From Neophaeotheca triangularis (taxonomy: Eukaryota), in assembly GCA_054600435.1 (NCBI GenBank), contig BAAIJX010000007.1:372001-436000 (forward strand): a DNA stretch of 64,000 nucleotides, in the 5' to 3' direction. The position numbers and the translations under genes were made by a program. Positions 19,227-45,675 of this stretch are shown here, piece after piece (position 1 is the stretch's first letter; the number at the start of each line of letters is the position of its first letter). Under the pieces are notes generated by a model. That model was not told where the DNA came from. It worked only from the letters and a program-made list of their open reading frames with translations, and did no database searches.

Positions 19227-20118
19227 CCGCTGTTGGAAATAGTCCGTGCTGATTCAAAGGATGCCTCGTAGCTACATAGTATGTACTTGGTATCTCGAAT
19301 GTACTGAAGGAATTGAAACCACCTCTGTAATTTTGCTCTGAGAACGCACCACCTGTGCCAAAATATGTTGTACGCGTAACAGTATCTATCATGTTCCAGA
19401 GCGGTAGAGTCGCAAGAGCATGGGAGGGAGTAGGTCGATCTCCAGGGTCTAACCCCCTCCAGCCGAAATCGCCAACGGCCCCCTCCCCTCACCCCTCATC
19501 AATCAATCAATCAAGCGGCAAACCTGGAAGCCCAGAGTTGGCGGCTTGACGTTGCTCGAGACACATGCAATCTCGCCTACCTAGTCTACAGCCTCGACGG
19601 CCAACATCGACCAATACTACTTGAGCCGCGCACGCCTGTGCTCGACGACTCATGGCCTGAGCAGGACACTCGTAAGCTAGCGCGATCGGTCTACACACTC
19701 CCAGTGTCCCACACACTACCTACTAGTAGGTACTGCTCAGCGCTCCCACCTCATTTGTAGGTCGTAACCGGTTTGCCGCCCATTGTGGTCCATGTTTGTT
19801 CCAGACACTGGTGACTACTGCGGTTTCATCTACCAGTACCTGATTCAATCAAAAATTCTGGCTGCAAGGTAGGTAGCGAGGCACAGTGACTGAGTAGTGC
19901 GGGTGTGGATGAGCTTCCTTCGCTCTGCTACTGCGGCGGTGCGGTGCGCTCGTGATCTTAAGACTACGCCATCACTCACCGTTGACAACCTTGGAAGCAA
20001 TTTGCATGCTTGAATGCTCACCTCTCCTCTCTGGTTTCTTTTTCCTCACTTACTTGCTCTCTATCCCCATTGTTTTCATCTCCCGCAACCTCTATGCAGC
20101 TTATCTCGCTGCCACATC

Positions 20119-23049
20119 ATGCCGTTTCGTACCCCTCGAGCCCGTGAAGAAGGCCGGCCTTCTTCATTTGCCATGCGTTTCGGGATACCTAACTTTTGGG
20201 GGAGGAAGCAGAGCGGTCGGCAGGAAAAGCAAGACTCGATGTTTGAGGAAACAGAGGAGTTCGCGCCGAGGAAGCATAGCATGCAGGAATTCTTCAGGAA
20301 TACCAGCGAGAGCTTGAAGGCGAAAATACCTGGACGGCAGTCAGTACAGCAAGAGAGAGATCGTGACGCCTCTCCTTGCTACACAGGACCACGAGACAGC
20401 GCGCATATGAAGTCGCTGGATATCAACGAGGAAGCTTTGGAGCGTATCTTGGGTCAGCCGAAAGACTCGAAGAGGGCGTCGAGTAGCTTCTGGCTGCAGC
20501 AGAGAATGCGCGCAGACTCTGCGCAGCCCTTCGACTCTAGACTTACGCCGACGCGCAGTCTTCCCAAGGCTGAGCGGGATCGGCTGCCAATTTGTGCGGA
20601 GGAGCTTAGGGAGATGCTTTCCGGAGCTCTGTATTTTTCGGTGAAAAGATCACAGGATATTTACGAGCCGTGCATTTTGTTGGGACATGGCTCCGGAGGC
20701 AAGACACAGGATAAGAGTGATTGCACGGATTTCTCGCACCCGAGTTTTGCGGCATCGACATTGAGGTCCCTCAAATCGAACAAATCGACCGAACTTACTT
20801 CTTCGAAATACGTTGAGGATTGGCATGCTGCTTGTGAAGTCCCCACCATGCTGGGAGCGCAAGGCAATGACCCCGGAACCATCGGTTACGAGCACTACCT
20901 ACAACTACCCGTTGCCGACAGCACTGTGGTGGCAGAGGAGACGAACATTGGAGGACGCAAGCGCCTTCTAACGGAGCCGGGATCTTTGGGATTGCAAGCG
21001 CTCGATATGGTATATCTGGTGCAGCGACTGACCACTCTCGGCCACCTGCTTGCAAGCATAATGGGGAACGTCTCGAGCGATCAGCTCAGCCAGGATAACT
21101 TGCTGGGCAAGGAGCTCTTTTCGAAACTCATAAGTGATGAAGCCGGAGAGAGGAACGCTAGGGAGAGCGAGTGCAGGCTAGCGGCGGAAACAGAGGCGCT
21201 CGAGTACGCTCTCGGCCAAGCTGGGCTTTGGCATGACTTCAGCTTGGTAGAGTGGCGTATACGAGCAGGACAACTCCTTTGGGTCACCCAGGATGATCAT
21301 CAGCAACTGCAAAGTGAGAGTCGCGAGCCTGGCGAGATGGAGGTGCTCATATTGCAGGCGACACTAGCCGCGGAGCTGCTCGTTCGTACAGAAATCCTCA
21401 AGCAGCGCGGCAATACAGAAGTGGATCAGATTAGGGAGCCGAGCGTAGCATGGAGCATGGTACTTGCGAGGGTTGTTCTGGAGAACCTCACATTCTCGTT
21501 GCCTCGCACAGAGACTGAATCTGGAACCTACCGCCAGAGCTTCCTCTCAGCTATGTCTTACTTCACAGCAAGTGCAAACGAAGAGGAACCCTGGTTCGCC
21601 ATACCTTTGACGCACTCAAAGAAGGAAACAGCGCAGCTAGAAGGCTTGCTCCATTTTGCTGAAGAGATTGGATGGCCACACGCACAAGACGTCCGTTTAC
21701 AGCTCGAGCAGAAACAGGAGAATCGTCCGGCAGATACGCCTGCTACGTTCGACGGTGGTCGCAGCCTCACCAGCACGGCGTTTAGCATGTACGCTACCCC
21801 TCTGAGCAGCCCTATGATCTCTCTACCCACAAAGGGCACACCGACAACTCCTGGCTCGAGGCATAGCTATTTTGGCGGCGTGGGCGCGCAGAGGCCGGGT
21901 TTTAGCCGCAAAACCACTGCCCATAGTATGCAGCTCGAGCCAGCAAACCACAACCAGGACAATCAAGATGAGCCACAACAAGCCGGCTTCGAGGTTGGAG
22001 GCTGGCTCAGCCGCTCCTGGCTCATGGGTTTAGTAATGCCAGGGGAAGCGGCATCGCACTTCTTGATTAGCACGCTTCTCGAGAATAGCCCTCAAGCCAT
22101 TGAAGCCTTGGGCGACCAGGCAAACCTCTACGGCGGCTTTCTGTACGCCGGTCGTCAGTTCTGGAGTAAGAGCTGCGTCGTCGGTCGGGTGCTCGCTGCC
22201 ACCGATGGCGCAAAAGAGTGTATGGGCTGGATCTCAGTAAATGATCTGGCAAAAGGCCAGGCTGATGGCTGGATCAACTTGGACGTCAAGGATATTCCGG
22301 AGCCTCCAGCGCCTAAGATCAAATTGAGCGGAGCAGTTGCTAGGGACTCTGATCCACTGCACGGCCACGCAATCGCAGAGCTACAAATGGGAGACTTCAC
22401 AACTCCCGTCGACGGCCCTCCGGTCATGGGCAACGAAGTGCGCTGCGAGGGTATGTCGCTCATTGAAGCATTTCATACCAGCTTAGAGGACGCCTACGAT
22501 CTCTCCATGGCCGAACTGACCTTTTCCTCGCCCCTCAACAAAAAGCTCGCGCCCGTGAAAGTTTCCATAACCTACGACGTCAACTTCGTCTCCTCATACC
22601 CCTGCTACCCATCGGCCTCGACCTCCGAACCCCGAGCACGAAATAAGACACCACCATGCATCGACAATGACAGCAATAGTCTCCTCCAGCCATCGTACTC
22701 TCGGGCAGAAAAGTACCCGTCTCCCGCGCCTGCACACCCTCTCCACGTCGACTACAACTTCACCATCGTCCCTGTCACTGCGTTACTCTCCGCTCCGCCA
22801 GCGGAAGGTCGCGTGAACGCTCTGTCTGCGCCAGGCGAGGCTACATCGGTGGGAGAGCAGGATGGCGAAGTGACTGTGCTGGATTGCCGGGGCACGGGGC
22901 CAGGCGCGAGAGACTTGGAGTTGCTGGCGCGAGCGTGGTGCGCGAAGGTCGGGGAGAGTGCGGTTGTCGGAAAGGAAGGGAGGACGTGTCTGAGCTGTTG
23001 CGTTAGAGAGGCCAGGGCTGTGGGTGTTAGTGTCGTGATCCGGATATAG
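20119..23049 (+). CDS. Large fungal hypothetical protein (about 976 aa) with C-terminal Cys motif
   Basis: Uninterrupted 2.9-kb ORF from ATG 20119; conserved-looking blocks GGWLSRSWLMGLVMPGEAASHFLISTLLEN and LARAWCA...RTCLSCCVREA. Function not recognised. Confidence 0.8.
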   Translation: MPFRTPRAREEGRPSSFAMRFGIPNFWGRKQSGRQEKQDSMFEETEEFAPRKHSMQEFFRNTSESLKAKIPGRQSVQQERDRDASPCYTGPRDSAHMKSLDINEEALERILGQPKDSKRASSSFWLQQRMRADSAQPFDSRLTPTRSLPKAERDRLPICAEELREMLSGALYFSVKRSQDIYEPCILLGHGSGGKTQDKSDCTDFSHPSFAASTLRSLKSNKSTELTSSKYVEDWHAACEVPTMLGAQGNDPGTIGYEHYLQLPVADSTVVAEETNIGGRKRLLTEPGSLGLQALDMVYLVQRLTTLGHLLASIMGNVSSDQLSQDNLLGKELFSKLISDEAGERNARESECRLAAETEALEYALGQAGLWHDFSLVEWRIRAGQLLWVTQDDHQQLQSESREPGEMEVLILQATLAAELLVRTEILKQRGNTEVDQIREPSVAWSMVLARVVLENLTFSLPRTETESGTYRQSFLSAMSYFTASANEEEPWFAIPLTHSKKETAQLEGLLHFAEEIGWPHAQDVRLQLEQKQENRPADTPATFDGGRSLTSTAFSMYATPLSSPMISLPTKGTPTTPGSRHSYFGGVGAQRPGFSRKTTAHSMQLEPANHNQDNQDEPQQAGFEVGGWLSRSWLMGLVMPGEAASHFLISTLLENSPQAIEALGDQANLYGGFLYAGRQFWSKSCVVGRVLAATDGAKECMGWISVNDLAKGQADGWINLDVKDIPEPPAPKIKLSGAVARDSDPLHGHAIAELQMGDFTTPVDGPPVMGNEVRCEGMSLIEAFHTSLEDAYDLSMAELTFSSPLNKKLAPVKVSITYDVNFVSSYPCYPSASTSEPRARNKTPPCIDNDSNSLLQPSYSRAEKYPSPAPAHPLHVDYNFTIVPVTALLSAPPAEGRVNALSAPGEATSVGEQDGEVTVLDCRGTGPGARDLELLARAWCAKVGESAVVGKEGRTCLSCCVREARAVGVSVVIRI

Positions 23050-25866: not shown

Positions 25867-28438
25867 ATGGAGGACGGCGCATCGGGGCAGGAAGATGGTG
25901 GGCGCATCGCTATCAAACGATCCGTTAGTGACATCGGCCCCTTCAGACGCTGCACTGTACTGACTAGCCCACCAAGTGCGACGCTTGTCGAGCACGCAAG
26001 ATACGGTAAGGCACCTGGACGACTCGATTTATCTATAGATTTTTGATTAGTCTTGCGCATGTCGCTCGGAAGAGTGCTGACCCTTTCTCAGATGCGACCG
26101 CTTATCACCCTGCTCGCATTGCCGCGCAGCTCAAATCAGTATGTGGCGTGCACCTTCTTTAGATGGTGATGCCTGCTAACCAAGCGGTCGTCAGCTTGCC
26201 GTACCACTGCGCAGAGACCCAGAGAGGCTCGCTCAAGAGTGGTCATTTCGAACGAATAGTCAGTAACCGTCGCAGACAATCCCTCACTCGTCGAAGGGAC
26301 GGCTGATCAGGCAACAGTGAGAAGAAGATTGATGGGATCGAAACCCGTCTTTCCTCTGTCGAAAGTCTGCTTCGTCAGACGCTTGATTCCCTGACAAGCG
26401 TACAAGACAAGCCGGTTCGCTCTTCTATGAACACTCCTGCCAGTAGCCTCGGTGGACAGCGAAAGACGCCTGCTCCTGCCAGGGTTGCCACCGAGGAAGA
26501 GGCGTTTGAGGGGTTCACGAGCACCAATGCCCATTCGCAGGTTGCCACCAACATCGTTGAACAAACATTGGGCCAAGATCCAGCTGCGTGGCAGGACGCA
26601 CAGCTTCACAGTGCTCTCAAGTCACTACGCGACCTGGCCAGCAAGATGCAGAAACCACCGACTCGCGTCCCCACAGAGGCTCATGTCCTCCTTCCTACTG
26701 ATAGTGAGACCGAAGAGATGCTGTCCCGGCACGACATGGAAGATCTGCTTAGAAGAGTCTGCTGTAAGGCCATCCTTTGCCCCACCACTCCGCCGTATCT
26801 TGCTAATAGTTACCTCGATAAGCTGGTGAAACGCTCACAGTCCCATTGATCCTGCCGTTCTTGTCGAAGTCTAGGTTTTCGGCACGCTGCGAAGAATGGT
26901 ACGCTGATCCAGACAATGCCCCTAAGCCCATGGAACTCTACATAAGCGGCTGTTTCTACTCCATATGCTGCGAGATGAGCGCTATGGAGGCAAAAGAGTC
27001 TGCTGCCCAGCATTACTATCGTCTGGGTCTCATCTGTGAACGACGCCTGGAGAAGGCTTTGACCGACGTGAGCCTTATGATGCCTGCCACTCGTGACAAT
27101 GTGGAGGCTCTCATTGCTGCAGTATGTACAAAACGACGTTGCACGATGAAGGTATTTGATCTAACTGCGTAGGGATCCGCTGCGATCGACATGTGCAAGC
27201 CTTCTGTCTGCTTTGCTCTGGTCTGTTTGGCCACGACATTGGCGCAGAATCTCGGGTACCACCGATACAGCACCATGACCGCCGATACCGAACCCGAAAG
27301 ACAAGACAAGATAATTACATTTTGGTCATTGTATCTGCTGGATCGAAGCGTCGCTCTACGCCTCGGCAGAGCTCCCGCGATCCAGGACTACGATATTTCG
27401 CTGCCTTATCCTTCGCCGTCTGCAAAATGCTCCACGGAGGTGGCTGGACTGTTTGGGTATTGGCTGGACGTTGCCCGAGTTCAAGGGAAAATAACCGAGA
27501 AACTCTACAGTCCTGGAGCACTTTCGAGGCCTCAGGAAGAGCGTTTCCATAGCGCAGCCCAGCTGGAGGTTGAGCTCGACGCAGCATACAGTAAACGAGG
27601 ACAGTTACAGCGCATCCTCAACACCGGCAGAGACGTTGGCCGTGACACTTCGATCCGCGAGTCATACGAGGACGTTCTGCTGAACAGCGACTACGTAATG
27701 CATTATAGCATATTAGCGTTGGTCCAGTATGCCAAGCCGGCTAGTCCTGGAGAGCCTTCACCTGCCCTTGATGCCGCGAGAAAGGCTTTGCGCCTCTTTC
27801 ACGCCCGACCGGTGCGCGATGAAGTTAATGTGTACTTTTGGGTGAGCTACTGCCACTGGTAAGGACCTCATGTCGTGTGACTACTGTGAGATCTGCAGAC
27901 CAGTCAACTAACAGGCGAAACCAGGATTATAATGAACTGCCCATTTACGCCATCTCTCGTAGTCTTTTGCCACATCATCAGTTCACAGTCGAGCCAAGAA
28001 AGTGGCACTGACCTTGAGCTACTCAACAACTTCGTCGACAGTCTAAAGACAGCATCGCATGTTTCAGATGGCGTGAACAAGCTCTATCAACTCTGCTCAG
28101 TGTTCTGCAATGTTGCAGAGTCCTACGTGCGTGCCAAACGGCAGAAAGAGGAAGTAGCTTCTCAGCAAGCTTTCATGACACAGCTTCCAAACGAACCCGC
28201 AAACGCTCTGGAGGAGTTTGACGGTTATCTGGCAACGATCGGATTGGCTCCGCCAACGCTGACGGATGGTGCTGGGATGGCGGACATTGGCAACCCCAAC
28301 GACCACATCTCGGCCGCTGGGCAGGACATGTCTACCTATCTACAAGATTGGTACTCTGGTAACGTCTCTCTGCTGGGTCTCTTGGAACAGGACATAGGTC
28401 ATGGCAACTTCGGCGCCGACCAAGCATATGGCCCCTGA
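25867..28438 (+). CDS. Zn(II)2Cys6 transcription factor with fungal-specific middle homology region; exons 25867-25923, 25977-26005, 26092-26138, 26195-26258, 26318-26763, 26823-27121, 27173-27858, 27925-28438
   Basis: Splicing gives CDACRARKIRCDRLSPCSHCRAAQITC, then coiled-coil YEKKIDGIETRL and MHR motif LAQNLGYHR...FWSLYLLDRSVALRLGRAPAIQDYD. All seven introns are GT-AG and phase-consistent. Confidence 0.92.
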
Positions 28439-29058: not shown

Positions 29059-30024
29059 TCACGATACTGGGCTGACCTCACCGAATCGGTATTGAGCCCA
29101 GCTCATCGAGCCTTCCGGCAAAGTCCACAGTCTCTCTCCTTTATCGTTTCCGGCTGCTCCAGCCCCGATATGTATCGGTAACAAGTGCTCAAGACTCGGG
29201 TGGGCCTTCCTGGCATCCGGTCGCTTGAGCAAGTTCCTCATGGCCTCCTGACGTTGGCCTACGGGTGCTTCCACTGCCTCTCTCAGCGCTTCGTCGAAAC
29301 TGGTTGCGTAGGGAAGAGCTCCCGGCATACTGAGCGCTTGCCACATGTCTCGCAGGTTGTGAACGGCCATGCCGCTCACGATAATCTGCACGCCTTCTTC
29401 GCGTAGGCTGGAGATTGCTTGGCCGAGTCGATAGTGCATGTCGGCATCATCAGAGGCGAAGAGGCTGACTTGGACCAGCGGAACTTTGAGAGGGTTCGAT
29501 TCGGGATTGAAAGCAACCATGAAGGGCGCCCACACTCCGTGATCCAGACCACGCTGGACGCCTTTTGCTTTGATCCCTGCGTGCTTGAAGAGGGATAGCA
29601 CCTTCTCGGCGAGTTCCGGGGACCCCTGATTAGGATACTTGAACGAGTAGTAGTGGTCTGGGAATCCCATAAAGTCGTAGATGAGATCTGTCAACGGTGC
29701 GTTGTTGACCTGGATGCTGCCGTCTCGTGGACCCTGCCAGTGAGCGCTAAAGACGACGACAGCTTTTGGCTTGACTTGGGTAGTGATCTCTTTGCCAATG
29801 CTTTGGAGTTTGGCGTAGGCTGGGTGCTCTGTCTCTTCCATTACGTTTGGGCCGCCGTGGCTCATGAAGTATACTGGAGTGCGAGTCATGTTTGATGCTG
29901 TGGTTGTTGATATCGAGGGAAAGTAGTCGCTCGCTGTGTTAAATAGCAGCCAACCGACAAGGACGGGGATGAGGAAGCCTGCTGTAAGTGCCAGGGGGTA
30001 TGAGGCGAGCGAGGTCAGATGCAT
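29059..30024 (-). CDS. LigB-family extradiol ring-cleavage dioxygenase (DODA/YgiD-like); alternative start at 29889
   Basis: Motifs YFMSHGGP, FSAHW, LIYDFMGFP, RGLDHGVW, PLVQVSL, SGMAVHNL, AHPSLEHLLP. Confidence 0.92.
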   Translation of the reverse strand: MHLTSLASYPLALTAGFLIPVLVGWLLFNTASDYFPSISTTTASNMTRTPVYFMSHGGPNVMEETEHPAYAKLQSIGKEITTQVKPKAVVVFSAHWQGPRDGSIQVNNAPLTDLIYDFMGFPDHYYSFKYPNQGSPELAEKVLSLFKHAGIKAKGVQRGLDHGVWAPFMVAFNPESNPLKVPLVQVSLFASDDADMHYRLGQAISSLREEGVQIIVSGMAVHNLRDMWQALSMPGALPYATSFDEALREAVEAPVGQRQEAMRNLLKRPDARKAHPSLEHLLPIHIGAGAAGNDKGERLWTLPEGSMSWAQYRFGEVSPVS

Positions 30025-30334
30025 ATAGAGGTTGCTTTAGTCGTAGTGAACAAAGCAATGTACGAGATAGTAATCGAAGCGCTGAATGATGTAGTAATCA
30101 AAGAAGCGAGGAGAGCAAACACGGTGAACGAACGATGAAACGAGTTTACTTGCACAGCAGTTTACAATTGATATATGCTCTTCAAAAGTACTTGGACCGA
30201 GCTCTGGCTTATGGCATACAGCGGAGCGCTTTCCGCAGTACCTAGGTATTTACCGACGTCATGCTCAACTTCTCAATTGCGCTCTGCGAGAACCCGAACC
30301 GCATCAACAAAAACGATATTCCAACTAATCCACC

Positions 30335-31137
30335 ATGTCAGGGCCAGCAGCAATTGTTGTCCCGGCGGTTCGCCGTCACACCTCCACCTGCATCGTCGCC
30401 CACGGTCTGGGAGACAGGTAAGTCGAGCACAACCCTCCGTCACCACCACCACTACCACCATTGCGCAAGCAAAAGATCACCTAGAGCTAACAGAACCGTC
30501 CCCCTCCCCCAGCGGCGCAGGCTGGTCCTTCCTAGCCGAAAACTTCCGCCGACGCAACACCTTCCCAGAAACAAAATTCATCTTCCCCAACGCGCCCTCG
30601 ATCCCCATCACCGTCAACATGGGCATGCGCATGCCGGGCTGGTACGACATCACCGACTTCAGCGACCTAGCGAACCGCAGCGAAGACGAGCCAGGGATCA
30701 CGCGCTCCCAGCAAACCCTGCACTCCCTCATCGCCGACGAGATAGCGGCAGGCATCCCCAGCGAGCGCATCGTGCTGGGCGGGTTCAGCCAGGGCGGCGC
30801 CATGGCGCTCATGGCGGGCATCACGGCTCCGACGAAATTGGGCGGCATTTTCGGGCTGAGCTCGTACTTGCTGCTGCAGGGCAAAGTGAGGGACATGGTT
30901 CCCAAGGACAACCCGAACAAGGCCACGCCCATTTTCATGGGCCATGGCGATGCCGATCCCATTGTACGGTATGAGTGGGGCCAGAAGACGAGTGAGGTTT
31001 TGCAAGGGTGGGGTTGGAAGGTGGATTTCAAGACGTATGCGGGTCTGCCGCATTCGGCTGCGCCCGAGGAGATTGATGATTTGGAGAAGTATTTGCTGGA
31101 GAGGTTGCCGGGGGTGGAGAAGGAGGGGGCCTTATGA
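30335..31137 (+). CDS. Acyl-protein thioesterase 1 / lysophospholipase (alpha/beta hydrolase); exons 30335-30417 and 30513-31137
   Basis: MSGPAAIVVPAVRRHTSTCIVAHGLGDS|GAGW...FPNAPSIPITVNMGMRMPGWYDI...GGFSQGG...HGDADP...LPHSA (Ser-Asp-His triad); in-frame stop just upstream of ATG 30335. Confidence 0.94.
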
Positions 31138-31440
31138 CTTACGAATAGGGAAACGGGGGCGAGGGAGCCTTGGGATGCTGGGGAGATTCGGGTGGTTTTT
31201 ACATTGGTGCTGGCGGTGGGGATGTGGCTGCTTATTGTGGCGGGTTGGAGGCGCTGGCGCCGGGATGAAAGAGCCACGTTAGATGGGATGGATGGGTTGC
31301 GTTAGGCTTGCTGGAAAAGGGCATCGAATGGCAAAACCTGAAACCACGACACTGTCATAGAAGCATGGACATTACTAGCATATCTAGACTACATGGCAAA
31401 AGCCCTGTGCCAATCTCGATCGCCCGGTGAGAAAAGTCTC

Positions 31441-33082
31441 CTATACCGTCTCGATGTAGCGTCGCACCTCCCTGTTGAGCATTAGCATCCATACCACAAG
31501 AATCGCAAAAGTAACGACTTACCAATCAGTAACAGCCTCGTCCCAAAGCCGGACTTCATGCTCCCTCGTGCCAGCATAGTGGTCCACGAAATCGTCCCCA
31601 AACACCTCACGCGCAATACTTCCCTTCCGCGCAAACCGCTCAGTGGCATCCTTGAGGCTCTTCGCCAGCCTTTCGCCCTTGTCATCCGCACTGCCAACAT
31701 CTTGGCCCTTGCCCAGTGGAGGAATCGGAATCTCCAGCTTCTTCTCCACGCCCCGCCATCCGAGTGCGAGGATAGTGGCCAAGACAAGGTAGGCGTTTGT
31801 GTCCGCGCCTGGCACACGTACCTCGAATCGCGTGGCCTTGGGCGACGAGAGGGGTGGCGAGATGAGCCGTATGGATGCTGCACGGTGCTCTAGACCCCAA
31901 GAGACGGTCACCGGCGCCCAGAAGTTCTCTACTAGTCTCTTGTAGCTGTTGATAGTGGGCGCGACAATGGGCATCACGTCGGGCAGACCCTCAAGCAGAC
32001 CAGCCAGAAAGTGTCGGCCGACGTCGGACAAGTACTTGAGGTCGGGATACGGAGGGTTAGGATCCGGCTCGTCTCTCGCGAAGAGGTTGGCCTTTGTCTT
32101 TTGATCCACAAGCGAGACGTGCATGTGCCCGCTGTTGCCTGGCAGGTTCGCGCGAGGCTTGGCCATGAAGCATGGCGTGATGCCAAACTTGTTTGCAATG
32201 TTCTTGACAGTGAGCTTGAATAGCACCGCTCGGTCTGCCATCTCTCTGATTTCGTCAAACTCGAGGGCAGCTTCGTAGACTCCAGGCCCGGATTCGGTAT
32301 GCCAGCCTTCAATGTCGCAGCGAATTTGACGGCAAGCGTCGTACACGCCATAGTAATAGTCTTGATTGTGTCCTGGACGAGTCAAGCTATACGCAAACAT
32401 GCCTTCCTCCAAGCTCGGCAGACTCTCTACAGGGTTCTCGCGCAAAAACGTCGCAGTCGCGGAGGAGTTGCGATCGGTCGAGTTGGGAGGAACGCTTGAA
32501 TTTTGAGGCGTGCGGAACTGGTAAAATTCGTATTCGGCTATGGACACACACGCGCCTTGTCAGCGGTGGTGGACTTGTAGAATGGCGCATCGCGCTTTTC
32601 ATGCTCGTAGGAGCCTTCAACACGATGCCGATGCAGCTCATCTTACCTCCTGCCATAGCGCCAATACCCTTGGCGCCAATCTTCGAGCATGCCCTCTCCA
32701 AGACACTCCTTGGACATGCGCTCAAGCTATTCCCGTCCGGCTCCCTGAAGCTGCATAGGAAGAAGGGGACGTTGTTCTCCCATGGAATGCGCCTGTAAGT
32801 GCTCAAGTCGACTTTCGCCAGTATGTCCCTATAACCGTTTTCGGCGTTGCTGATTTTAAGCTCTTTGAAATACGTCTGGTCATGCTGGTCCCAACCAAAG
32901 ATGACGCTGCAGAAGCCAAATCCGGACTCTGCGATGGATAGGAACTTCTTCTTGCTCATCAACTTGCCGCGCATCTGGCCGTCGATATCAGTGCCTCCGA
33001 CTTTGACCGAGTGATCATCTTGCAGCAGCTGCGGGAGTTGTGCGAGCGTGAGCTGCTGCGCCGTCTCTTGCGAAGCCGCCAT
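31441..33082 (-). CDS. Glutamine synthetase-like protein (gamma-glutamyl-amine ligase, GlnA4/PuuA-like); exons 33082-32647, 32537-31523, 31471-31441
   Basis: DIDGQMRGK, AEYEF, WHTESGPGVYE, GNSGHMHVSL, NSYKRL, RFEVRVPGADTNAYL, C-terminal VTDWEVRRYIETV*. Confidence 0.93.
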
Positions 33083-34064
33083 TGTACTATCTGTTGTGAA
33101 TGGTGCTGGCTCAGTCGTTGCTGGCGAAGGTCACGATATGTCTGCCTATCGGTCCAGTGGTTTGGATTTGCTGATTTACGTCAATCGAGCAATGTTGAAT
33201 GCTCGTGGTATGGGGAAGGAGAGCAAGTTATAGAAGAGGTGACAGATACAACAGATACAAGTAGGCAAAGAGTTGAGCTGTGATTACTAGTTGCGTGAAG
33301 CTCTAGACCTCATAATCTACTACAGCTCACTAGCGCGGATCATGTCAGCTCTAGCTTCCTTCGCTAACGGTGCATGTGCCCTTGATGCTCATTATTGCTT
33401 TTGCCTTTGTCCTTATCCCAACCTCACTTCCTCTTCATGTCTTGGACGTGTATTATTATAGATTTTGATTTTGATTTTGATTTCTTCCTGTGCAAAATCA
33501 CGTCCAGCGAACTGTACTGCGGGGCCAGGCCTGGAGTCCTTAAAGCCACAACACAACAAAGTGCTAGGTAGTGTTGTTCCAACCATGGCCCGCAACAATG
33601 GGGATTAGGAGCTACCTTGTGGATCAACTGCAGTACTACTAGTATTACTCACGCCTATACGTTGTCCGGTCATGAGTTGAGCATTCTGGTAAGATCAGAC
33701 TAAGCGTGTCCTTGGCTTGGGTGTCAGTCAATAATGCCCGTCCAGTGTTTTGAGGACCTGGATGCCTGATCAGTGAGGTGTTACGGGCAGCTTCGGCGGA
33801 CCCTCACCGACGGCGCCGCGGGCAGCAATCGAGCTTATCGGGCGGTGAGAAACTTCGAGGTTATGAATGAGTAATAAGGACGATGCACATCTTTCAGCAA
33901 GGTTAGATACCGCGAGAACACACCTCAGTTCCGTCGTTCATCATCAAGTTGAATCCAAGTCGTGTATCAAATACCAGCAGACAAGGAACAGCAGCCATCC
34001 ACTGCTTCCCAGATTCTTCATTCAAAGCTTAAAAGAATCTTCTTCAAGCGTCACTTTCAACAAG

Positions 34065-35089
34065 ATGGCGAGTATCCCCCGACCTGATCATGGTACAATA
34101 CATAGCTAACGGGACGGCAGGCATCCAACGCCAGTGCACCTCGCGGTCGTCTCGCAGGCAAGAATGCCGTCATCACTGGAGCAGCTGGGTAAGACGAGCA
34201 CTTCACACTTTTCGTGTTAGGAAGACCGATAAACTAAAACTATGGTCACCACAGTGGCATCGGTCTTGAAACGACCATCTTGTTCCTCCGTGAAGGTGCC
34301 TCCGTTGTCATGGCCGACATATCTGAGCCCGCATTGGAGAAGGCTGTAACCAAGGCCAAGGAGATGGCTCCTCAGATGACAGGTCAGGTCGCCACCAAGA
34401 AGTGCGATGTCAGCAAGGAGTCCGATGTGCAGGCCGTTATCGACAGCCTTGATCCCTGGGGCGGTCTAGACATCATATTCAACAACGCTGGTATCATGCA
34501 CGGCGATGATGCTGGTGAGTACCATGCCCACGTGAAAGTGCAAAAGATTCTGACCCGCCATGTAGACGCCATCGACACCCCTGAGAGGATCTGGGACCTG
34601 ACTCACAACATCAACGTCAAGGGTGTGTGGTATGGTAGCAAGCACGCCGTGCTCGCACTCCGAAAGCACAAGAAGCAACGCGGCTCCATCATCAACACAG
34701 CTTCGGTTGTGGCCCTCGTCGGCTCCGCCACCCCCCAACTCGCCTACACGGCCTCGAAGGGTGCCGTCCTCGCCATGACCCGCGAGCTGGCCATTGTGCA
34801 CGCTCGCGAGGGCTTCCGTTTCAACGCCCTCTGCCCTGCGCCTTTGAACACACCACTGCTGCAGGACTGGCTGGGCGATGATCAGCCCAAGAGGCACAGG
34901 CGCGAGGTTCACTTCCCGACTGGCAGGTTCGGTGAGGCTGTTGAGCAAGCGCAAGCGGTTGTTTTCCTTGCGAGCGATGAGAGCAGCTTCGTCAACGCCA
35001 CCGACTTTGTCGTGGACGGAGGAATGACCAGGGCTTATGTGACGCCCGAGGGCCCTCCCTCTGCGGCACCGGCAAACTTGGCCAAGTAG
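34065..35089 (+). CDS. Classical short-chain dehydrogenase/reductase; exons 34065-34067, 34121-34188, 34255-34514, 34566-35089
   Basis: GRLAGKNAVITGAAGGIG Rossmann motif, NNAGI, YTASK catalytic motif, VDGG. The first exon depends on a GC-AG intron (see findings). Confidence 0.92.
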
Positions 35090-36679
35090 ATACGGTACGA
35101 CGGGGGCGGAAACTTGATGGTTGAGCCGCACAGAGCATACAAGTAGATTTGATACACGGGCCAGTGCGTGTATGATGAAACGATGCGACGCCCTGATCCC
35201 ACACCACACGCTGCTACGAGAGTTGTTCGTACATGGAAGTCGTCGAGTCCCAAATGCCTCGTGGTCGATACGTGATACGTGACGATACCTACCCAAGACG
35301 ACATGACGAGCTTCAGATGTCACATTGCCATCAGCACCCGATGATTTCCTTTGAGTGATCATCTCACATAAATGCTGCATCTTGACAAGGCTGTCGTCAG
35401 TCGGCATGGCGCTAGAGCAAGGGCGCGCGATTGGTGCACTGTTCCGGAAGCGGGCTTGATGGCTCTTGATGCAGGGCAGGGCTGGCTAGCGTCCCATCGT
35501 CACTTCTTCGTCGTTGGCATCGCATCCCGAACTCGCCGGCAATTGCAATGGAACCTTGGAACCCTTGCCTTCTTAATACATTATGTTTGCGCGAGGGGTG
35601 TTGGACTCGCGCAACAACTTTCTTATTATTACACGAAGAGTAATGATGCCGCCGGCCAGTCGTTTTTCCGATTCAGATCCGCCGTCCTATGCTAGCAGCT
35701 TGCCCTGTGTGTCGAGAACGCCCTGCGTCTTGCGGCAAAAAGCAAGCACTCGGGCGTGCACAGAAGCAACCTTGGAAGTGTCTCCGGGCAAGCTGGACGA
35801 GCGCCGACGGCGACAAGTCGGCGTCGTCGTCGTCTCCCCTCCCCCACCCCTCTCTCTATCTCTCTCTCTCTCTCTCACCGCCCGGGAAAGCGCACCTGAC
35901 GCCAGCCATCTCAAACTAACTGGCCTCCTCCACAAGTAAGCACAGGACAACGTGGACAACGCAGACTGCGCCTATCCTTTACGGACCTCTGCCGTGCAAT
36001 ACCGCGTCCAGTAGGCGGAATGGGTAGGTGCGTGATGACGTCTGATCATCACCAATTCCACCCTTTCTTAGCTACCTTCCAATTACCTACTCCCTTTATC
36101 GCATATCGCCCTCGTCAGTTCTAGACCAAGTTGGCCATACAGTTCCTCCGCCGCCGCCTTGTACGTGGACACGTCTTGGTTTGCCCCCTCTTGCTTGTCT
36201 GTACATATACCCGGACCGACTCCTCTCGCTCATCATCCTTCTCCTGCTCCTGCTGCTTTCAGTCTTCCCAACCTAAGTTACTTACCTACGAAGACGAACC
36301 TCGATAGAAGCACTGGACTATTGTAGCATCGCTTCGCATTCGACTGCAGAACACCACACCAAAGAGCCAACAAGACGAAACAGAGCTCCCGCAACTCAAC
36401 AAGGGTCCCCGAGTTCGCAATAACAATAATCACGAGCTGAGGTGGGAAGAAGTTCGATCTACGTGAAAATCATAGGACCAGGTCGCCTCAGTAGGAAAGA
36501 ACGAGGTGTGCGTCTGTGAAATCAGACAGAGCTTCCGCACACGATGGCGACAGGATTGGCGCTGAAAGGGTACGTCAGCACGAGGCGCTCCGATACATCT
36601 CAAGATATCGGCTACCTTTCCCCCCACCCAACCCCTCTTCCACACATTCACTTCTTCACTGAGAAAGGAGCTATACAAG

Positions 36680-39461: not shown

Positions 39462-40440
39462 GTTCGAAGTCTAGTTCGTTTGTCGTAGCAGTGTAGTATA
39501 GTTTGTTCAAACCCCTTTCCAATATCAAGGCTTGTGTTCGGAGCTGTAAGAATGGCCACGTCCGGTCAGTCAGGTTTGGTGCGAAGAAACGGGGTTGATG
39601 TTGAGCGCGAGGAAGAGGATGAAATTGTGATGGTGGTAGTGAAAGAATCGGCGAGTCGCCTGCCTGCATGCATACGCATACGACAAACGAATGGCATGGG
39701 AAGAGAGCAAAGGCAACGTAAGGCTCACCTCACTTCACCTCACCCTACTAATCCTCAGCGACACATCCACAAGTAATACGACGAGGCGAAGAGAGCGATA
39801 CAGAGGACTGCAGCGGTTTCATTGGGGAGTCTGGGTGTTCAGGAGAAGAGGAAGTGTTGTGGCCCTGAGACGGAAGAAAAGGCCCCCAAGGCAGCATTCG
39901 CAACCAAACACATTCACGTCGTCGACAATCGAAGTTCACCTCTCTCGCCTCGACGCCTACGAACCGGTGACGTCGCTAATCTTACGGCGGACCCCGCTGC
40001 TGGTCCAACGAGGCAGTCGCGACTGCCCCTTCTGGCTGCCAAGGCAATTTCGCAAAAAGCTCACCTATACAGCCCCGTCAACAACCTCCGCCCTCGCTTC
40101 CACTTCGACCTCCCACAACCACACAAACCACATCCGATATTCTCATCAAGTCGCCCTCGCTCTCCGCCTTCATCAACACGAGTCTGGTATACGATAGCGA
40201 GTATCTTCACACTTGCTTTTGTACCACCACTCCTCGTCGTCGCCGATCGCCGAGCCACGCTCTTGATTCGAATACCACCAAAACCTCACCTATTTCTTCA
40301 CCACCCAAATCCACACCTACTCCCCCTTCCACCTCTACTTCCTCCTCCTCACACACACACCCACCTCCACACCGCCAACCCCACCCCTTACTGCGCTTCA
40401 ACCACGACCACTTCTTAGCTACTCCGTCTCACTTGTCGTT

Positions 40441-43400
40441 ATGGCCAGTGACTCCGGTAGCGACAGCGGCGGCCACAACCCGGACGCAGACCACACCCAA
40501 TCCGCTCCCCCACGCGTGACCGCCTTCACGCTGGACGACATCACCTGGGTTGACCCGGCCCTCCAGTCCGCCCCTGCTGTCGTTCAGTATTCCACTTTCG
40601 ACAACAGCCGTCCAGTTCCTACGCAGGACGTCTTGACCGCCCCAGCCAGCGCCCCAGCTCCCATCGTTGCTCAAGAGACTTCTGCAGCCCCGGCCAGCGC
40701 ACCAATTCCCACCGCTGCTCAAGAGACTTCGCCAGTCCCAGCCAGCGCCCCAGCTCCCATCGCTGCTCAAGAGACTTCTCCTGTCCCGGCCAGCGCCCCA
40801 GTTCCAACCGCAGCCCAAGAGACTTCTCCAGTCCCAACCAGCGCCCCAGCTCCCATCGCTGCTCAAGAGACTTCTCCTGTCCCGGCCAGCGCCCCAATTC
40901 CAACCGCAGCCCAAGAGACTTCTCCAGTCCCAGCCAGCGTTTCGGGGAAAGGCATAGCTCCAGAGAGCATCACCCCACGCCGCTTCGTACCCTCATCCGG
41001 TGCGCCAGCCAGTGCTGAACTCTGCAACTGGATGCACGGTCTTTTTGCCACAGATCTCTTCAGGCAGATGATTCTGAACGGATCGTACCCTCTCGAGAGA
41101 ATGGACGACTTCATCTGCCCAATCAACTTCGCCACCCCTCCAGTTACTCCTACCATGCAGCATGCGCACTCCATCACGTTCGGCCAGATGCCACCGACCC
41201 TCCACCTCAGGCCAGTCAGCGAGGCGGACCTCCACAACACCAGAGCGTACCCGATCAGCGCAGTCCACCAGCAGGTGTTCGCCAAATTCCCTCGCCTCGC
41301 AACGGAGGACTACGTGCAGCAAATCTGTGCCGTGGTTGAAGGGTACTACAACTCCGACATGAACAAGTGGGGCAGTGTTCTGCCGTGGGAGTTCCCCTAT
41401 GGCGATCGTGCCGCGGAAGACGCTTTCGTCATCGAGCAGTTCGGCGCTCATGAGTGCGAAGCTTGGGGTGGTGCGTTGAACGATGGCCAAGGCTACAGAT
41501 TCCTCAAGAACGTGTGGATTTCGCTCGCACGCTACAACGCCCACGCCAAGATCAACTACGTTGCCTCCTGGTGGTGGTACAAGGACGACCACATGAGCTT
41601 GACCGAGACTCGTGAAGGTGTTCTACAGTTCTTCAGGCCCAATCTCCATCCTGCCGCTCTCTTTATGGAAGAGGATTTTGACATGTGGGGAGAGACCCTT
41701 CTGTGGCACGCGATGTATATGATTGTCGACCAGGTGTACGCTTTCGTCCAGGACTCCGATCAAGCCATGTTGCAAAGTGTCGCCGACAACGCTCAGACCC
41801 AGCATGCTACCCAGGCAGGAAGCTCGCCGCCAGCTGTCACGGCTGCGCAAAATTCGTCACCAAACCCATCTCCTACTAGCGTGCCGGTGCCGACTGAAGG
41901 TGAAGCTGCACAAGTGAAAGCGCCCGACACCGCCGACACTCAGCCTGCACCTGTCCCTGCCTTTTCTCCACCGATCGAGGAAGAAGTTCCCAAGGCATCA
42001 GCTGGCATCAACACAAACAACCATTCCTCGGCCATGAATTCCAAGGAGCACCACGCGCCCGCCCATCACGTTCACGCCACGAACAGCGTTGACGTTGCGT
42101 TGGTGCATGACAGGCAGAACCAAATGCTTCCGCAGTCTCAGGACATGATGCATGCTAGCCACGTGCAGCCGCAAGCCTCCTCTATGGAGTCTGGATCTTA
42201 CATACAGTACCCTAGGGCCGACCAGCATGCCCAAACCCAGGCTCAGCAGGTTAATAGGGACGGGTTCAACCCTTACTACGAGCAAGCCCACCGTGGAGAC
42301 CGTAGGGGTCGCGCAAATGGTCGTTACAACCATGCAGGAAGGAACCAGTACCAGGGCCCTCATCAACGCATGTCAGGCAGCGGTTATCAACAGCAGCAAC
42401 ACTCTTACCAACCACCTTTCGAGCGCGGCCATCGTGGCAATGCTCACTCCGGCGGTATGCAGCGCTACCAGCACGAGAACGTCGCTCCTGCCATGCACAT
42501 GCAACCAGCAATGCATGCGCAAGTCGTTGGTCGCGGGAACTTTCAACAGCTCCCGCCCAACTTCGCCCCGGGTCCTAACGTCATTCCACCTCCCATGGCG
42601 CCAGTACCCCAGGCTCATCCTCGCTTGTTCGACCCCAACACGCCGCAACATGGCCAACAGCATACTTCTCTGCCTGAAAACACGGTGACTCGTGATTTCA
42701 TTGGGACAGACTGCCCATCAGCAAAAACGCTTGTGGTTCTCGATATTCCCGAGGGAACCGGCTTGGGCGACATGCTCGCCGTGTTTGCTCCAGCTGGTGC
42801 CCGAATTCAGGGGATGAACCTTGCGAACAGAAACGGCCAATTATCGTACTATGTCGACTTCGCCACCCACATGGACGCTCGTGCAGCGCTGATGGCCTAT
42901 CACCACGGAATGCTGGCGACCAACTTGCGGATTGAGGTGGCCGGATCCTGCTACGACCCAACCCATCACAACTACCGCAATGAGAACGTAGGAAGATCTT
43001 CGACCCAGAACAGACCCATGCCAATCCTCCGAGCTAGTGACGATGTCCGTCTCACGCAGGGGCACTTTCCAACCTCTCAACACGAGCAGCGTCCTGTGTA
43101 TGTTCCGCAGAGCATGATGCATCAGGCTCAGGCCCCTTATGACCAGCGCTACGCTCATCAGCAAATGGAAGCGTCTCCTTACGCAATGCCCCCACCTCCT
43201 GCCGAAACGGGCTCTATGCGATTGTTTGACCACCAGGCTCCTGATGTCCACCACCAACAGTCCCAGCGTTCCACTGCTCAGCCAGCGGCAACCAACATGC
43301 CCACGGCATCTACCAAGGAACAGCCGAAGAACAAGGGCGCTCATAGTCGCGGGGGAAAGAACAAGAATGGCGCCCGTCACGCCAACAAGGGAGCCAAGCC

Positions 43401-45675
43401 AAAGGACGCCCAGGATACGAGCGGCGCATCAAAGGATCCTCCATCTGGAGCGGATGGTGCTCATAAAGGCAAGGGAGTACCTCAAGCAGCCCATCGCGCC
43501 AGCGACCCAAATATCCGTGCGACGACTCCATCTGGCCACACCGAGGATCCTGCTTCGCAGTCGCGTCCTCAAGAGCCTCAGCCTAAGAAGAGCAAAGGCA
43601 GGCCAAACGACACTGCGGTGAATCCTGGAGTCGCTACTCGTGCTCAAGAACAGAAGGAACCACCGAAAGCAAAGGACAGCGCTACAGAGCCCTCGGGTCA
43701 AGACGTCGCCACTAAAGAGGCTTTACCCGTTGCTACAACTTCTCCAGTTGAAGGTCACACCAGCAACATCAAAGACAAGCAGCGTTCGCTCCAGCTGGAC
43801 ACTACGACAAAGCCGGAAGCAAAGCCGGTGAGCGCCAGGGTTGCGGACACAGCTGCGAAGGCCGCAGAGTCAGAGATAGCCGCCACGACCGATGTTATCA
43901 AGCCCAAGGTGAGAGCCGGGGCGGCTCCAGCTCAGTCGGCAGAGCCGGCAAAACCCGCCCCAACTATTGACACTGAACAGTCCGTTAAGTTCTCGCCCGA
44001 GCTTTCATCAAAGACCCAGACGGGCAAGGAGTCACCTATCTCCGAGGCCAGTGTTGCTACTGCGAAGCAGGGTAGTAGTCACTCAAGCAACGGTAAAGTC
44101 GCAGCGGCAGAGAGGCGTTTCATTTTGGGATCTTCAGTTGCTCAAACACCAACAGATGCCTATCAAACCGCGCCCAACACTCCAGGCAGGGAGGAGCATA
44201 CCGCCGACTCACGACCTGCAACCGTCTCCGAAGACGTCTCAAAGGCCAAGAACGCACCCAAGCCCGATACACCTAAGGCCGCTGAACCCATAGACGGCCC
44301 TAAGCCCGACAAGCCTTCGGAGCTGGCACAACCAAAGGAGACTGCGGCCACAAAGGCCGAGAAGTCCAAAGGACCCAGCCAGACCGAATCGCTCAGCATG
44401 TTCAGCAACAAGAAAACCAAGAAGCCAAAAAAGTCCAAGCCAGTCAAGGGGGCAGCTAAGAAGTCTCAAAGCCAGAAGGCAGAGTCCAGCGGTCCATCTA
44501 CCCCGTCTGCTGCTGCTCTTGGAGGCAGCCAGGGCAAGGACAAACAAGCTTCAGAGCGCGAACAGGCATCAGACTCGCAGACCGCAAGCGTGTCCGATGA
44601 GAGTGTTGCAACCGGGGCTCATGGTGGTACGTCTTCCTCACCCCCGGGAAGTCCTCGCACAAGCATTCGCGAGGACGGACCAGGGGGTCGCGAGGAACAT
44701 CACGCTGGCATCTTACTGACACACATGGAATCTCAGGCCGGAAGTACTGAATCCCTCCTTATTTCCGACCAGAGCGATGAAGCGCCTAAAGGCTTGCACG
44801 ATTCAATTTCCGTACACTCTCATGATGATACTGGTTTCGTATCGGCTGGGGAGCCGACAAACCCAAACCACGTCTTGGATGACGACGAAACCATTGAGCT
44901 CGAGGACGTGGCTCAAAGCGCCTCTGCGGCCCCTCCGAAGATGACAAAGTCTCAAAAACAGCAAAAGAAAAAAAGGGAGAAGGCAAAGGCAAAGAAAGAG
45001 GAGGCGAGACAGCGAGCGGGTACAGCTAGAGCACAATTGGAAAGCACGATTGCGCGTCTGCGGGCGGACCCTCAGGCGTTTGGCATGGGAGCTCCACGAA
45101 GACCAGAGGAAGGGGAGATTTACGAGAGACCAGACTTATCTGAGATCATCCGCTTGTTCTCACAAGCTGAAGAGGTGCGTAGAGAGCTGGTCAATGACAA
45201 TACCGCGACCACCGCTCCTACTAGGGCTTCGATCACCGACACCGACAACTCCTCCGCCCCTGCATCCTCTTCGATCTTCACAGAAATTCAAATCGCCCTC
45301 CATGCCGTCGCCAAGCGTGCCCCCTTGGATCGTGGCTTCCTTGCAAATCTGACCGACACCGGAGATCCTTCTGGTCTGCTCCTCGATTACACGAGTGGCA
45401 GAACAGTGCTCATAGACCGCACCATCTCCCCCCTAGCCCCGCAGGGCCGGCAGTGGGGACCGGAGCTCAACTTCCGCGACAAGGAGAGCGCGGCAACGGC
45501 CGTCTCCATGTTCAAGGCGAGCCCCGAGTTCTTGGAACGGTACGGCGGCGGCAAGTTCGACATGAAGGGACTAACCGTCATCTTCATGCCGGACTCGTGC
45601 GAGCCGGAACTGTACCTCATGCCGGCCGCTCTCTACGGGGAGGTGTTGGGCTCGGGTTCCGAGGACGTGGAGTGA
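40441..45675 (+). CDS. 1744-aa hypothetical protein: N-terminal tandem repeats, aromatic-rich globular region, Q/H/G-rich region, degenerate RRM-like domain, long disordered tail
   Basis: 5.2-kb uninterrupted ORF. KTLVVLDIP...LSYYVDFATHMDARAAL (about 42721-42945) resembles RNP2/RNP1. Confidence 0.82.
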   Translation: MASDSGSDSGGHNPDADHTQSAPPRVTAFTLDDITWVDPALQSAPAVVQYSTFDNSRPVPTQDVLTAPASAPAPIVAQETSAAPASAPIPTAAQETSPVPASAPAPIAAQETSPVPASAPVPTAAQETSPVPTSAPAPIAAQETSPVPASAPIPTAAQETSPVPASVSGKGIAPESITPRRFVPSSGAPASAELCNWMHGLFATDLFRQMILNGSYPLERMDDFICPINFATPPVTPTMQHAHSITFGQMPPTLHLRPVSEADLHNTRAYPISAVHQQVFAKFPRLATEDYVQQICAVVEGYYNSDMNKWGSVLPWEFPYGDRAAEDAFVIEQFGAHECEAWGGALNDGQGYRFLKNVWISLARYNAHAKINYVASWWWYKDDHMSLTETREGVLQFFRPNLHPAALFMEEDFDMWGETLLWHAMYMIVDQVYAFVQDSDQAMLQSVADNAQTQHATQAGSSPPAVTAAQNSSPNPSPTSVPVPTEGEAAQVKAPDTADTQPAPVPAFSPPIEEEVPKASAGINTNNHSSAMNSKEHHAPAHHVHATNSVDVALVHDRQNQMLPQSQDMMHASHVQPQASSMESGSYIQYPRADQHAQTQAQQVNRDGFNPYYEQAHRGDRRGRANGRYNHAGRNQYQGPHQRMSGSGYQQQQHSYQPPFERGHRGNAHSGGMQRYQHENVAPAMHMQPAMHAQVVGRGNFQQLPPNFAPGPNVIPPPMAPVPQAHPRLFDPNTPQHGQQHTSLPENTVTRDFIGTDCPSAKTLVVLDIPEGTGLGDMLAVFAPAGARIQGMNLANRNGQLSYYVDFATHMDARAALMAYHHGMLATNLRIEVAGSCYDPTHHNYRNENVGRSSTQNRPMPILRASDDVRLTQGHFPTSQHEQRPVYVPQSMMHQAQAPYDQRYAHQQMEASPYAMPPPPAETGSMRLFDHQAPDVHHQQSQRSTAQPAATNMPTASTKEQPKNKGAHSRGGKNKNGARHANKGAKPKDAQDTSGASKDPPSGADGAHKGKGVPQAAHRASDPNIRATTPSGHTEDPASQSRPQEPQPKKSKGRPNDTAVNPGVATRAQEQKEPPKAKDSATEPSGQDVATKEALPVATTSPVEGHTSNIKDKQRSLQLDTTTKPEAKPVSARVADTAAKAAESEIAATTDVIKPKVRAGAAPAQSAEPAKPAPTIDTEQSVKFSPELSSKTQTGKESPISEASVATAKQGSSHSSNGKVAAAERRFILGSSVAQTPTDAYQTAPNTPGREEHTADSRPATVSEDVSKAKNAPKPDTPKAAEPIDGPKPDKPSELAQPKETAATKAEKSKGPSQTESLSMFSNKKTKKPKKSKPVKGAAKKSQSQKAESSGPSTPSAAALGGSQGKDKQASEREQASDSQTASVSDESVATGAHGGTSSSPPGSPRTSIREDGPGGREEHHAGILLTHMESQAGSTESLLISDQSDEAPKGLHDSISVHSHDDTGFVSAGEPTNPNHVLDDDETIELEDVAQSASAAPPKMTKSQKQQKKKREKAKAKKEEARQRAGTARAQLESTIARLRADPQAFGMGAPRRPEEGEIYERPDLSEIIRLFSQAEEVRRELVNDNTATTAPTRASITDTDNSSAPASSSIFTEIQIALHAVAKRAPLDRGFLANLTDTGDPSGLLLDYTSGRTVLIDRTISPLAPQGRQWGPELNFRDKESAATAVSMFKASPEFLERYGGGKFDMKGLTVIFMPDSCEPELYLMPAALYGEVLGSGSEDVE
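40642..40941 (+). repeat. Coding minisatellite: six 48-nt units plus a partial unit (16-aa PASAP[AIV]P[IT]AAQETSPV)
   Basis: Units read directly in DNA and protein. Confidence 0.95.

Follow-up and report, generated by a model that had tools for sequence, protein, structure and literature searches.

The locus described here lies in a window of 64,000 nucleotides from the dothideomycete fungus Neophaeotheca triangularis (contig BAAIJX010000007.1, positions 372,001 to 436,000), and all coordinates below are those of the whole window. Two genes are transcribed away from each other at this locus: one encodes a putative gamma-glutamyl-amine ligase of the glutamine synthetase (GS) fold, and the other a classical short-chain dehydrogenase/reductase (SDR). 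A sequence-only reading of the window had described the two as divergent from a shared region of about 980 bp and had proposed that they form the core of a gamma-glutamylation pathway for amino alcohols. Both genes were found where that reading had put them, separated by a spacer of 982 bp (Table 1). Pfam Gln-synt_C matches exon 2 of the ligase gene (3.7e-73), while adh_short and adh_short_C2 match exons 3 and 4 of the SDR gene. In what follows, L-numbers denote fetched loci and P-numbers library proteins.

Table 1. Positions of the gene pair, its spacer and the annotated neighbours within the window.
Feature	Position	Strand	Basis or detail
GS-like gamma-glutamyl-amine ligase gene (putative)	31441..33082	-	reading frames, Pfam, RNA joints, homologues; 493 aa
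Ligase exons	33082-32647, 32537-31523, 31471-31441	-	reading frames; start ATG 33082, stop ends 31441
Ligase introns	32646-32538 (109 nt), 31522-31472 (51 nt)	-	
Shared divergent spacer	33083..34064	.	span between two ATGs
Classical SDR dehydrogenase gene	34065..35089	+	frames, Pfam, RNA joints; 284 aa
SDR exons	34065-34067 (ATG), 34121-34188, 34255-34514, 34566-35089	+	stop ends 35089
SDR introns	34068-34120 (53 nt, GC..AG), 34189-34254 (66 nt), 34515-34565 (51 nt)	+	
LigB-type extradiol dioxygenase gene	29062-30036	-	beyond ligase
Abhydrolase_2 (phospholipase/carboxylesterase) gene	30172-31134	+	beyond ligase
Open frames with Fungal_trans domain	26307-28435	+	about 3 kb beyond ligase

Splicing was assessed with RNA-derived contigs at least 99% alike to the window, which came from 4 metatranscriptome runs in 3 studies and were compared over positions 31300-35300. 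Joints were present in these contigs at all five introns of the two genes, confirming that both carry spliceosomal introns, as had been claimed from the sequence. Contigs of both genes occurred in runs X1, X2 and X4, a record of presence only, from which neither level nor co-regulation is readable. The first SDR intron follows directly after the ATG, and of the positions allowed by the 3-base play of its joint only a GC..AG intron fits, with the donor GCGAGT; for this reason no GT-AG model joined the ATG at 34065 to the conserved frame. The RNA-based model gives the SDR the N-terminus MASNASAPRGRLAGKN, which resembles those of homologues (MATAPRGRLQGKN and MAAPRGRLQGKN). The SDR exon of the window is 100% identical to the N. 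triangularis protein P0122. This deposited model, which starts with MLV at an ATG at 33199 and has a first intron of about 900 nt, was unsupported by the RNA contigs. One contig from run X1 is unbroken from 33936 to the ATG, ahead of the first joint; since it spans 33936-34066, the SDR transcript has a 5' untranslated region that begins at 33936 or earlier. Taken together, these results demonstrate that the two genes are real and that each is transcribed and spliced.

The sequence-only reading had made conservation of the pairing in other fungi a test of its proposal, and the pairing does recur. A scan of fungal metagenomes with the SDR yielded 80 loci, 39 of which include 2 kb or more of DNA ahead of the SDR and were taken as informative. 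A GS-like gene lies divergently upstream of the SDR in 30 of these 39 loci, which include near-duplicates (L222/L223, L220/L221 and L236/L237) and are thus not independent, with 525-1832 nt between the matched parts; a tandem ligase lies downstream in one (L176), and the start of a divergent ligase is visible in 3 shorter loci. Among named fungi, the two genes bear consecutive locus tags in Sarea resinae (M1819_004114/004115), Pycnora praestabilis (M1827_001047/001048) and Meristemomyces frigidus (LTR85_009887/009888). The longest contigs of both proteins are equally long in 4 further fungi, one of them the 11-kb contig of Aplosporella, which suggests that ligase and SDR share one contig there as well. 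The pairing exceeds chance. It also outlasts local change in gene order: the LigB and Abhydrolase_2 genes, which lie beyond the ligase in the window, are both on the SDR side in L175 and L198, with LigB alone there in L159, L193, L200 and L208 and Abhydrolase_2 alone in L174 and L179. Since these two genes switch sides among fungi, the pair has been kept together through rearrangement.

Close copies of the ligase (P0068, 76%) and of the SDR (P0131, 91%) are filed under the oak Quercus suber; they look like fungal DNA in a plant assembly. In two metagenome loci with little upstream DNA (L216 and L217) the SDR is only 58% identical to that of the window, and may be a paralogue or come from a distant fungal lineage.

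We aligned the active site of the fungal ligase with those of four genes that pass GlnA models. The residues for metal, ATP and glutamate are all kept (equivalents of E129, E131, E212, E220, H269, H271, R321, R339, R344, E357 and R359). The ammonium site is lost: W replaces the flap residue E327, and the stretch holding Y179 is absent. K stands at D50, where the alignment is uncertain, and P at N264. Krysenko et al. took the loss of E327, D50 and Y179 as evidence that neither GlnA4 nor PauA7 is a glutamine synthetase (accessible part of PMC6529630). Because the ammonium-site residues are lost, the fungal ligase is unlikely to be a glutamine synthetase, in keeping with the earlier proposal. The opposite view, that the gene encodes a true glutamine synthetase, has the source names on its side ('glutamine synthetase', 'Type-1 glutamine synthetase 2'), as it has the best NCBIfam match, to TIGR00653 GlnA. 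That match reached 222-223 bits and failed against a cut-off of 429, however, and the phylogeny described below parts the ligase from the genes that pass GlnA models; together with the altered ammonium site, these results leave the view scarcely credible. Scores were also far from the cut-offs of the type III glutamine synthetase (GSIII) model (197 bits, cut-off 470) and of gamma-glutamylputrescine synthetase NF045547 (161-165 bits, cut-off 650), and no NCBIfam equivalog cut-off was passed.

Turning to the partner enzyme, the translated SDR holds the strings quoted in the sequence-only reading as well as the classical motifs TGAAGGIG, NTAS (with the catalytic S) and YTASK (YxxxK). An Asp ends strand 2 (VVMAD); in SDRs generally, an Asp after this strand marks the use of NAD, and the enzyme is probably NAD-dependent. 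The best NCBIfam family for the fungal SDR was NF004713/PRK06057, with 276 bits for P0122 and 271 for P0124; the next family reached 207.6, and the margin over every other family was about 64-68 bits. Its best PDB chain was 4WEC (1.5e-46; next chain 1.2e-27). Since the SDR of the actinobacterial locus L143 matches 4WEC at 1.8e-113, this chain belongs to the actinobacterial SDR family. An SDR tree was built by a quick search from 7 fungal and 16 actinobacterial SDRs, with 33 others as a limited outgroup sample. A genome-contig scan with fungus-specific peptide patterns gave only distant SDRs of 28-43% identity, which served as outgroups. In this tree the fungal clade (100) is sister to the actinobacterial clade (99), the two being joined at a Shimodaira-Hasegawa-like approximate likelihood ratio (SH-aLRT) of 94. 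Between the fungal and the actinobacterial SDRs identity is 44-50% across some 262 residues. The two sets have in common 26 signature positions, which are invariant in the 7 fungal SDRs, kept in at least 14 of the 16 actinobacterial ones and found in no more than 15% of the 33 others; most fall within residues 155-232, the region of the substrate loop, or in the C-terminal AYVTP tail. The family match, the PDB match and the sister clades all agree with the earlier suggestion that the fungal SDR groups with those linked to GlnA4. A look-up in a protein atlas, taken as a lead only, returned mostly actinobacterial SDR clusters.

Most of the actinobacterial members of this SDR family that were examined have a GS-like gene as a neighbour of their own. 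Of 151 genomes sampled from the class Actinomycetes, 62 carry one NF004713 member over the cut-off. Forty of these 62 places were fetched with up to 20 kb, going down the score list and skipping short contigs. In 38 of them the SDR has a GS-like gene at a distance of 1.4-2.1 kb; the two exceptions are L156, which stops 466 bases beyond the SDR, and L150, where 20 kb contain no GS-like gene. An aldehyde dehydrogenase (ALDH) gene stands between the SDR and the GS-like gene in both loci annotated with Pfam. The order is permease-GS-ALDH-SDR with a divergent Peptidase_C26 gene in L143, where the permease is of the amino-acid type, and SDR-ALDH-GS with a GntR regulator in L123. The numbers Rv2857c and Rv2860c, with which the sequence-only reading had labelled such an SDR and ligase, are unconfirmed: neither occurs in the papers that were examined for them. 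The layout of these loci is that of the published glnA4 cluster of S. coelicolor; the Streptomyces cluster comprises a short-chain dehydrogenase, an aldehyde dehydrogenase, glnA4, a regulator and an amidotransferase (accessible part of PMC6529630; PMC9397018, Table 2).

We next consider the descent of the ligase. A search of 1.84 billion cluster representatives returned relatives at 43-55% identity, of which those named belong to other fungal phyla or subphyla (Trichomonascus, Wickerhamiella, Funneliformis, Podochytrium, Phlyctochytrium and Ramicandelaber), and relatives at about 38-42% from bacteria (Collimonas, Glaciimonas, Verrucomicrobiota and Paceibacterota) and a gregarine. Trees were made from 64 rows (quick) and from 44 rows (careful, LG+G4). 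In the careful tree a 100/99 branch parts 11 other GS-family genes from a group of 33 rows. Six of the 11 pass a GlnA model (PRK09469 or TIGR00653), one passes the type III model and one lies just under the type III cut-off, while three (L266, L270 and L271) pass no NCBIfam cut-off. The group of 33 divides into an actinobacterial SDR-linked clade (99/99) and a clade (100/99) of fungal ligases and bacterial ones linked to an iron-type alcohol dehydrogenase (Fe-ADH). The fungal ligases form one clade (97/91), and this clade nests (96/93) with the gregarine and L249 ligases and that of Collimonas. Within it chytrids branch first, then Kickxellomycotina with Glomeromycota, then Saccharomycotina with Pezizomycotina, an order that fits vertical descent along the fungal phylogeny. 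Judged by this tree, the ligase is an old fungal gene that ranges from chytrids to Pezizomycotina, across which last group homologues are 74-82% identical. It is also a member of the sister clade of GlnA4 and not a GlnA4 orthologue, a correction to the earlier comparison with GlnA4.

Structural matches were also compared. The L143 ligase matches PDB chains 11ZS (3.5e-129) and 5DM3 (3.9e-121), both of the GlnA4 type, and the same two chains are the best for the L249 ligase; for the fungal ligase exon 11ZS is best by a small margin and 5DM3 is eighth. In L273, a locus of genome G154 reached via a Xanthomonas locus, the GS-like gene groups with the actinobacterial GlnA4 clade (100/100), which indicates that GlnA4-type ligases are not confined to Actinomycetes. 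Three long proteins, P0241 (4424 aa), P0255 (2757 aa) and P0270 (1356 aa), each contain 3-6 stretches resembling the GS catalytic domain at 30-33% identity, and could be either tandem genes run together or genuine proteins of several domains.

Matches to the fungal ligase in 300 gammaproteobacterial genomes numbered ten (E <= 1e-42), full length and 34-43% identical. The ligase is followed directly by ALDH and Fe-ADH in 7 of the 10 loci, and a hydrolase of the C26, GATase or M81 type is also present in 6 of those 7; contig ends cut 2 of the 3 remaining loci. In both branches of the wider group to which the ligase belongs, members sit with an alcohol dehydrogenase, an ALDH and a hydrolase.

Because two independent gene-neighbourhood patterns and the active-site features point the same way, we consider it moderately probable that the ligase and the dehydrogenase act in turn on a gamma-glutamylated amino alcohol. 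Ethanolamine is put forward tentatively as the most likely substrate, with confidence somewhat short of an even balance. In such a pathway the ligase would couple glutamate, through its gamma-carboxyl group, to the amino alcohol's amine at the expense of ATP and so form gamma-glutamylethanolamide, and the SDR would oxidise the free hydroxyl to an aldehyde. Enzymes encoded outside the window would complete the route, an aldehyde dehydrogenase yielding gamma-glutamylglycine and a hydrolase releasing glycine and glutamate. The steps proposed for GlnA4 run likewise from gamma-glutamylethanolamide through the aldehyde and gamma-glutamylglycine to glycine and glutamate (accessible part of PMC6529630; PMC9397018, Table 2). 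The functional interpretation offered in the sequence-only reading is supported as far as comparison of sequences and gene neighbourhoods can carry it, and those of its refuting conditions that could be checked in silico all turned out in its favour.

The shared spacers provide a hint as to regulation. Across 31 of them the motif HGATAR occurs 165 times, compared with 79.6 +/- 8.3 expected and a maximum of 109 in 300 shuffles, an expectation drawn from first-order shuffles of the spacers and not from other fungal promoters. A k-mer search of the spacers returned mostly coding remnants, and only GATA-type words were conspicuous. This pattern fits control of the pair by a GATA factor. It also enters a broader proposal that we regard as rather doubtful, namely that the pair represents an undescribed general eukaryotic route from the ethanolamine of phospholipid turnover to glycine via gamma-glutamyl intermediates. 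Such a route would have arisen in forerunners of the filamentous ascomycetes when an actinobacterial-type SDR was placed beside the ancient kingdom-wide ligase, replacing the Fe-ADH that works with the ligase's bacterial relatives, and would stand under GATA-factor nitrogen control.

Several observations weigh against a ligase and dehydrogenase acting in turn on ethanolamine or a similar amino alcohol, and most of them bear on one of three alternatives. The binding pocket differs from that of GlnA4, with P and W in place of E and F at N264 and E327, so the substrate may differ. Moreover, identity between the ligase and the SDR-linked ligases of actinobacteria is no higher than 28-32%, and the tree leaves it out of their clade. 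Both points would be expected if the chemistry were the same and the physiological substrate were not ethanolamine but another hydroxylated amine, such as 1-amino-2-propanol, 3-aminopropanol, serinol or an amino sugar. Secondary alcohols are common substrates of SDRs, and no substrate test of the Fe-ADH-linked bacterial clade was found in the papers examined. What speaks for ethanolamine is that the 26 signature residues common to the fungal SDRs and those of GlnA4 operons lie mostly around the substrate loop, that the bacterial clusters share PF00120, PF00465 and PF00171 (3 of 4 families) with a proposed ethanolamine pathway, and that ethanolamine is the one amino alcohol made by every fungus. 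We regard another substrate as unlikely.

The SDR is 86-91% identical across fungal classes, which is unusually high for a dispensable catabolic enzyme, and no ALDH, C26, GATase, M81, Fe-ADH or permease gene was found in the 64-kb window; the sequence-only reading had already remarked that the ALDH and the hydrolase are absent from it. A biosynthetic or signalling role, in which the SDR would modify a gamma-glutamyl compound made by the ligase and nitrogen catabolism would play no part, accords with the very high conservation of both proteins, and for FluG the case has been made that it is a developmental gamma-glutamyl ligase whose target compound is unknown (accessible part of PMC6478659). 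No hydrolase gene was linked in the 80 fungal loci fetched. The survey that had been suggested for linked ALDH or peptidase-C26 genes nevertheless succeeded for the former: ALDH adjoins the ligase in L206 and the SDR in L196 (2 of the 80 loci; the two ALDHs are 61% identical), and an APC-family permease adjoins the SDR in L188, L189 and L235. All the bacterial relatives examined are placed in clusters of catabolic appearance that include ALDH, a hydrolase and in many cases a permease, and the excess of GATA sites in the shared spacers fits nitrogen control, although the spacer of the window itself is unenriched (HGATAR 3 times, at 33087, 33146 and 33835, vs 2.8 expected). On balance, we find a biosynthetic or signalling role improbable.

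The SDR stands without a ligase in the available DNA of 8 of the 39 informative fungal loci (L187, L190, L196, L219, L220, L221, L229 and L230), and no SDR like the fungal one is near the closest bacterial ligases (0 of 10 loci). Both findings could mean that ligase and SDR are adjacent only because one bidirectional promoter region serves them, with no functional link between them, as could the presence of the ligase in early-diverging fungi, in which only the ligase side was assessed. Such an explanation is very unlikely given that the same two families have been joined independently in Actinomycetes (38 of 40 loci), that the fungal pair stays joined while LigB and Abhydrolase_2 change sides, and that the GS-like genes of the 30 divergent loci are 53-82% identical to that of the window. 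Two further points concern the family of the SDR: it scores under the curated NF004713 cut-off (276 vs 404 bits), and its tree, in which the key branch is unstarred, sets it against no more than 33 SDRs of other kinds. Having weighed all of these points, we retain successive action of ligase and dehydrogenase on a gamma-glutamylated amino alcohol as our interpretation.

Elsewhere in the window, the frames with the Fungal_trans domain (Table 1) had no match in the other fungal loci; a gene there is a possible regulator of the pathway. Two long frames, at 40267-45672 (+, 1802 aa) and 20014-23046 (+, 1011 aa), gave no Pfam match at 1e-5.

No study of the fungal ligase/SDR pair was found in the literature searched, with subscription journals outside its coverage, which agrees with the earlier statement that the pathway is not known to be characterised in fungi. 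The papers on GlnA4 or gamma-glutamylethanolamide among the matches listed all concern bacteria or archaea, and a P. putida fitness preprint and an Ophiostoma paper held nothing on the pathway. The gamma-glutamylation route for ethanolamine-like amino alcohols has thus far been described only in bacteria, and the fungal pair, on our interpretation, is a variant of that bacterial pathway. A GSI-like (type I) protein found from chytrids to ascomycetes, labelled 'glutamine synthetase' and without an assigned role, now has a partner enzyme and a proposed function precise enough to be tested. If the interpretation is true, an amino-alcohol gamma-glutamylation route would be added to fungal nitrogen metabolism and many database names would be corrected. 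It would also mean that lineages have arrived at the same pathway logic with alcohol dehydrogenases of two kinds, an SDR in some and an iron-type enzyme in others.

The fungal pair was compared with several known systems. Like FluG of Aspergillus nidulans, in which an amidohydrolase is joined to a GSI-like part regarded as a gamma-glutamyl ligase whose substrate is unknown (accessible part of PMC6478659), the ligase is a fungal GSI-like protein with W replacing the flap glutamate. Unlike FluG, a fusion of 865 aa, it is a stand-alone protein of 493 aa that lacks the amidohydrolase part; no protein of 800-900 aa occurred among the best 150 ligase representatives. MoGLN3 of Magnaporthe (accessible part of PMC8229676) was also considered; it could not be tied to the ligase family without its sequence, and the mild phenotype of its deletion was not used. 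With E. coli PuuA and P. aeruginosa PauA7 the fungal ligase shares the logic of ATP-dependent gamma-glutamyl ligation and the loss of E327 and D50. It differs from them in falling far under the NF045547 cut-off; in the Puu and Pau pathways, moreover, an oxidase acts on the terminal amine and no alcohol dehydrogenase is involved.

The ligase has its nearest bacterial counterparts in the gammaproteobacterial GS-ALDH-FeADH-hydrolase clusters, among whose ligases it is nested and with which it has W at E327 and P at N264 in common. The solved ligase 5DM3, which we take to be a C. salexigens protein, is closer to the GlnA4 type than to these Fe-ADH-linked ligases. The families of the proposed gamma-glutamylation of ethanolamine in C. 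salexigens (Chromohalobacter) are PF00120, PF00465, PF00171 and PF05013 (PMC9397018, Table 2). The gammaproteobacterial clusters match three of these four, the hydrolase being C26, GATase or M81 vs PF05013. In contrast to both systems, the fungal alcohol dehydrogenase is an SDR and not an iron-type enzyme. In this respect the fungal pair resembles the pathway of S. coelicolor, which consists of SCO1611 (SDR), SCO1612 (ALDH), SCO1613 (GlnA4) and SCO1615 (hydrolase) (Krysenko et al. 2019, accessible part of PMC6529630; review PMC9397018). The fungal ligase lies outside the GlnA4 clade, the fungal genes are monocistronic, spliced and divergent instead of forming an operon, ALDH and hydrolase genes are unlinked in the window, and the fungal SDR is below the NF004713 cut-off. 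What the two systems have in common is a GS-like ligase devoid of the ammonium site beside an SDR of the same subfamily, and a proposed order of reactions in which ligation would be followed by oxidation of the alcohol.

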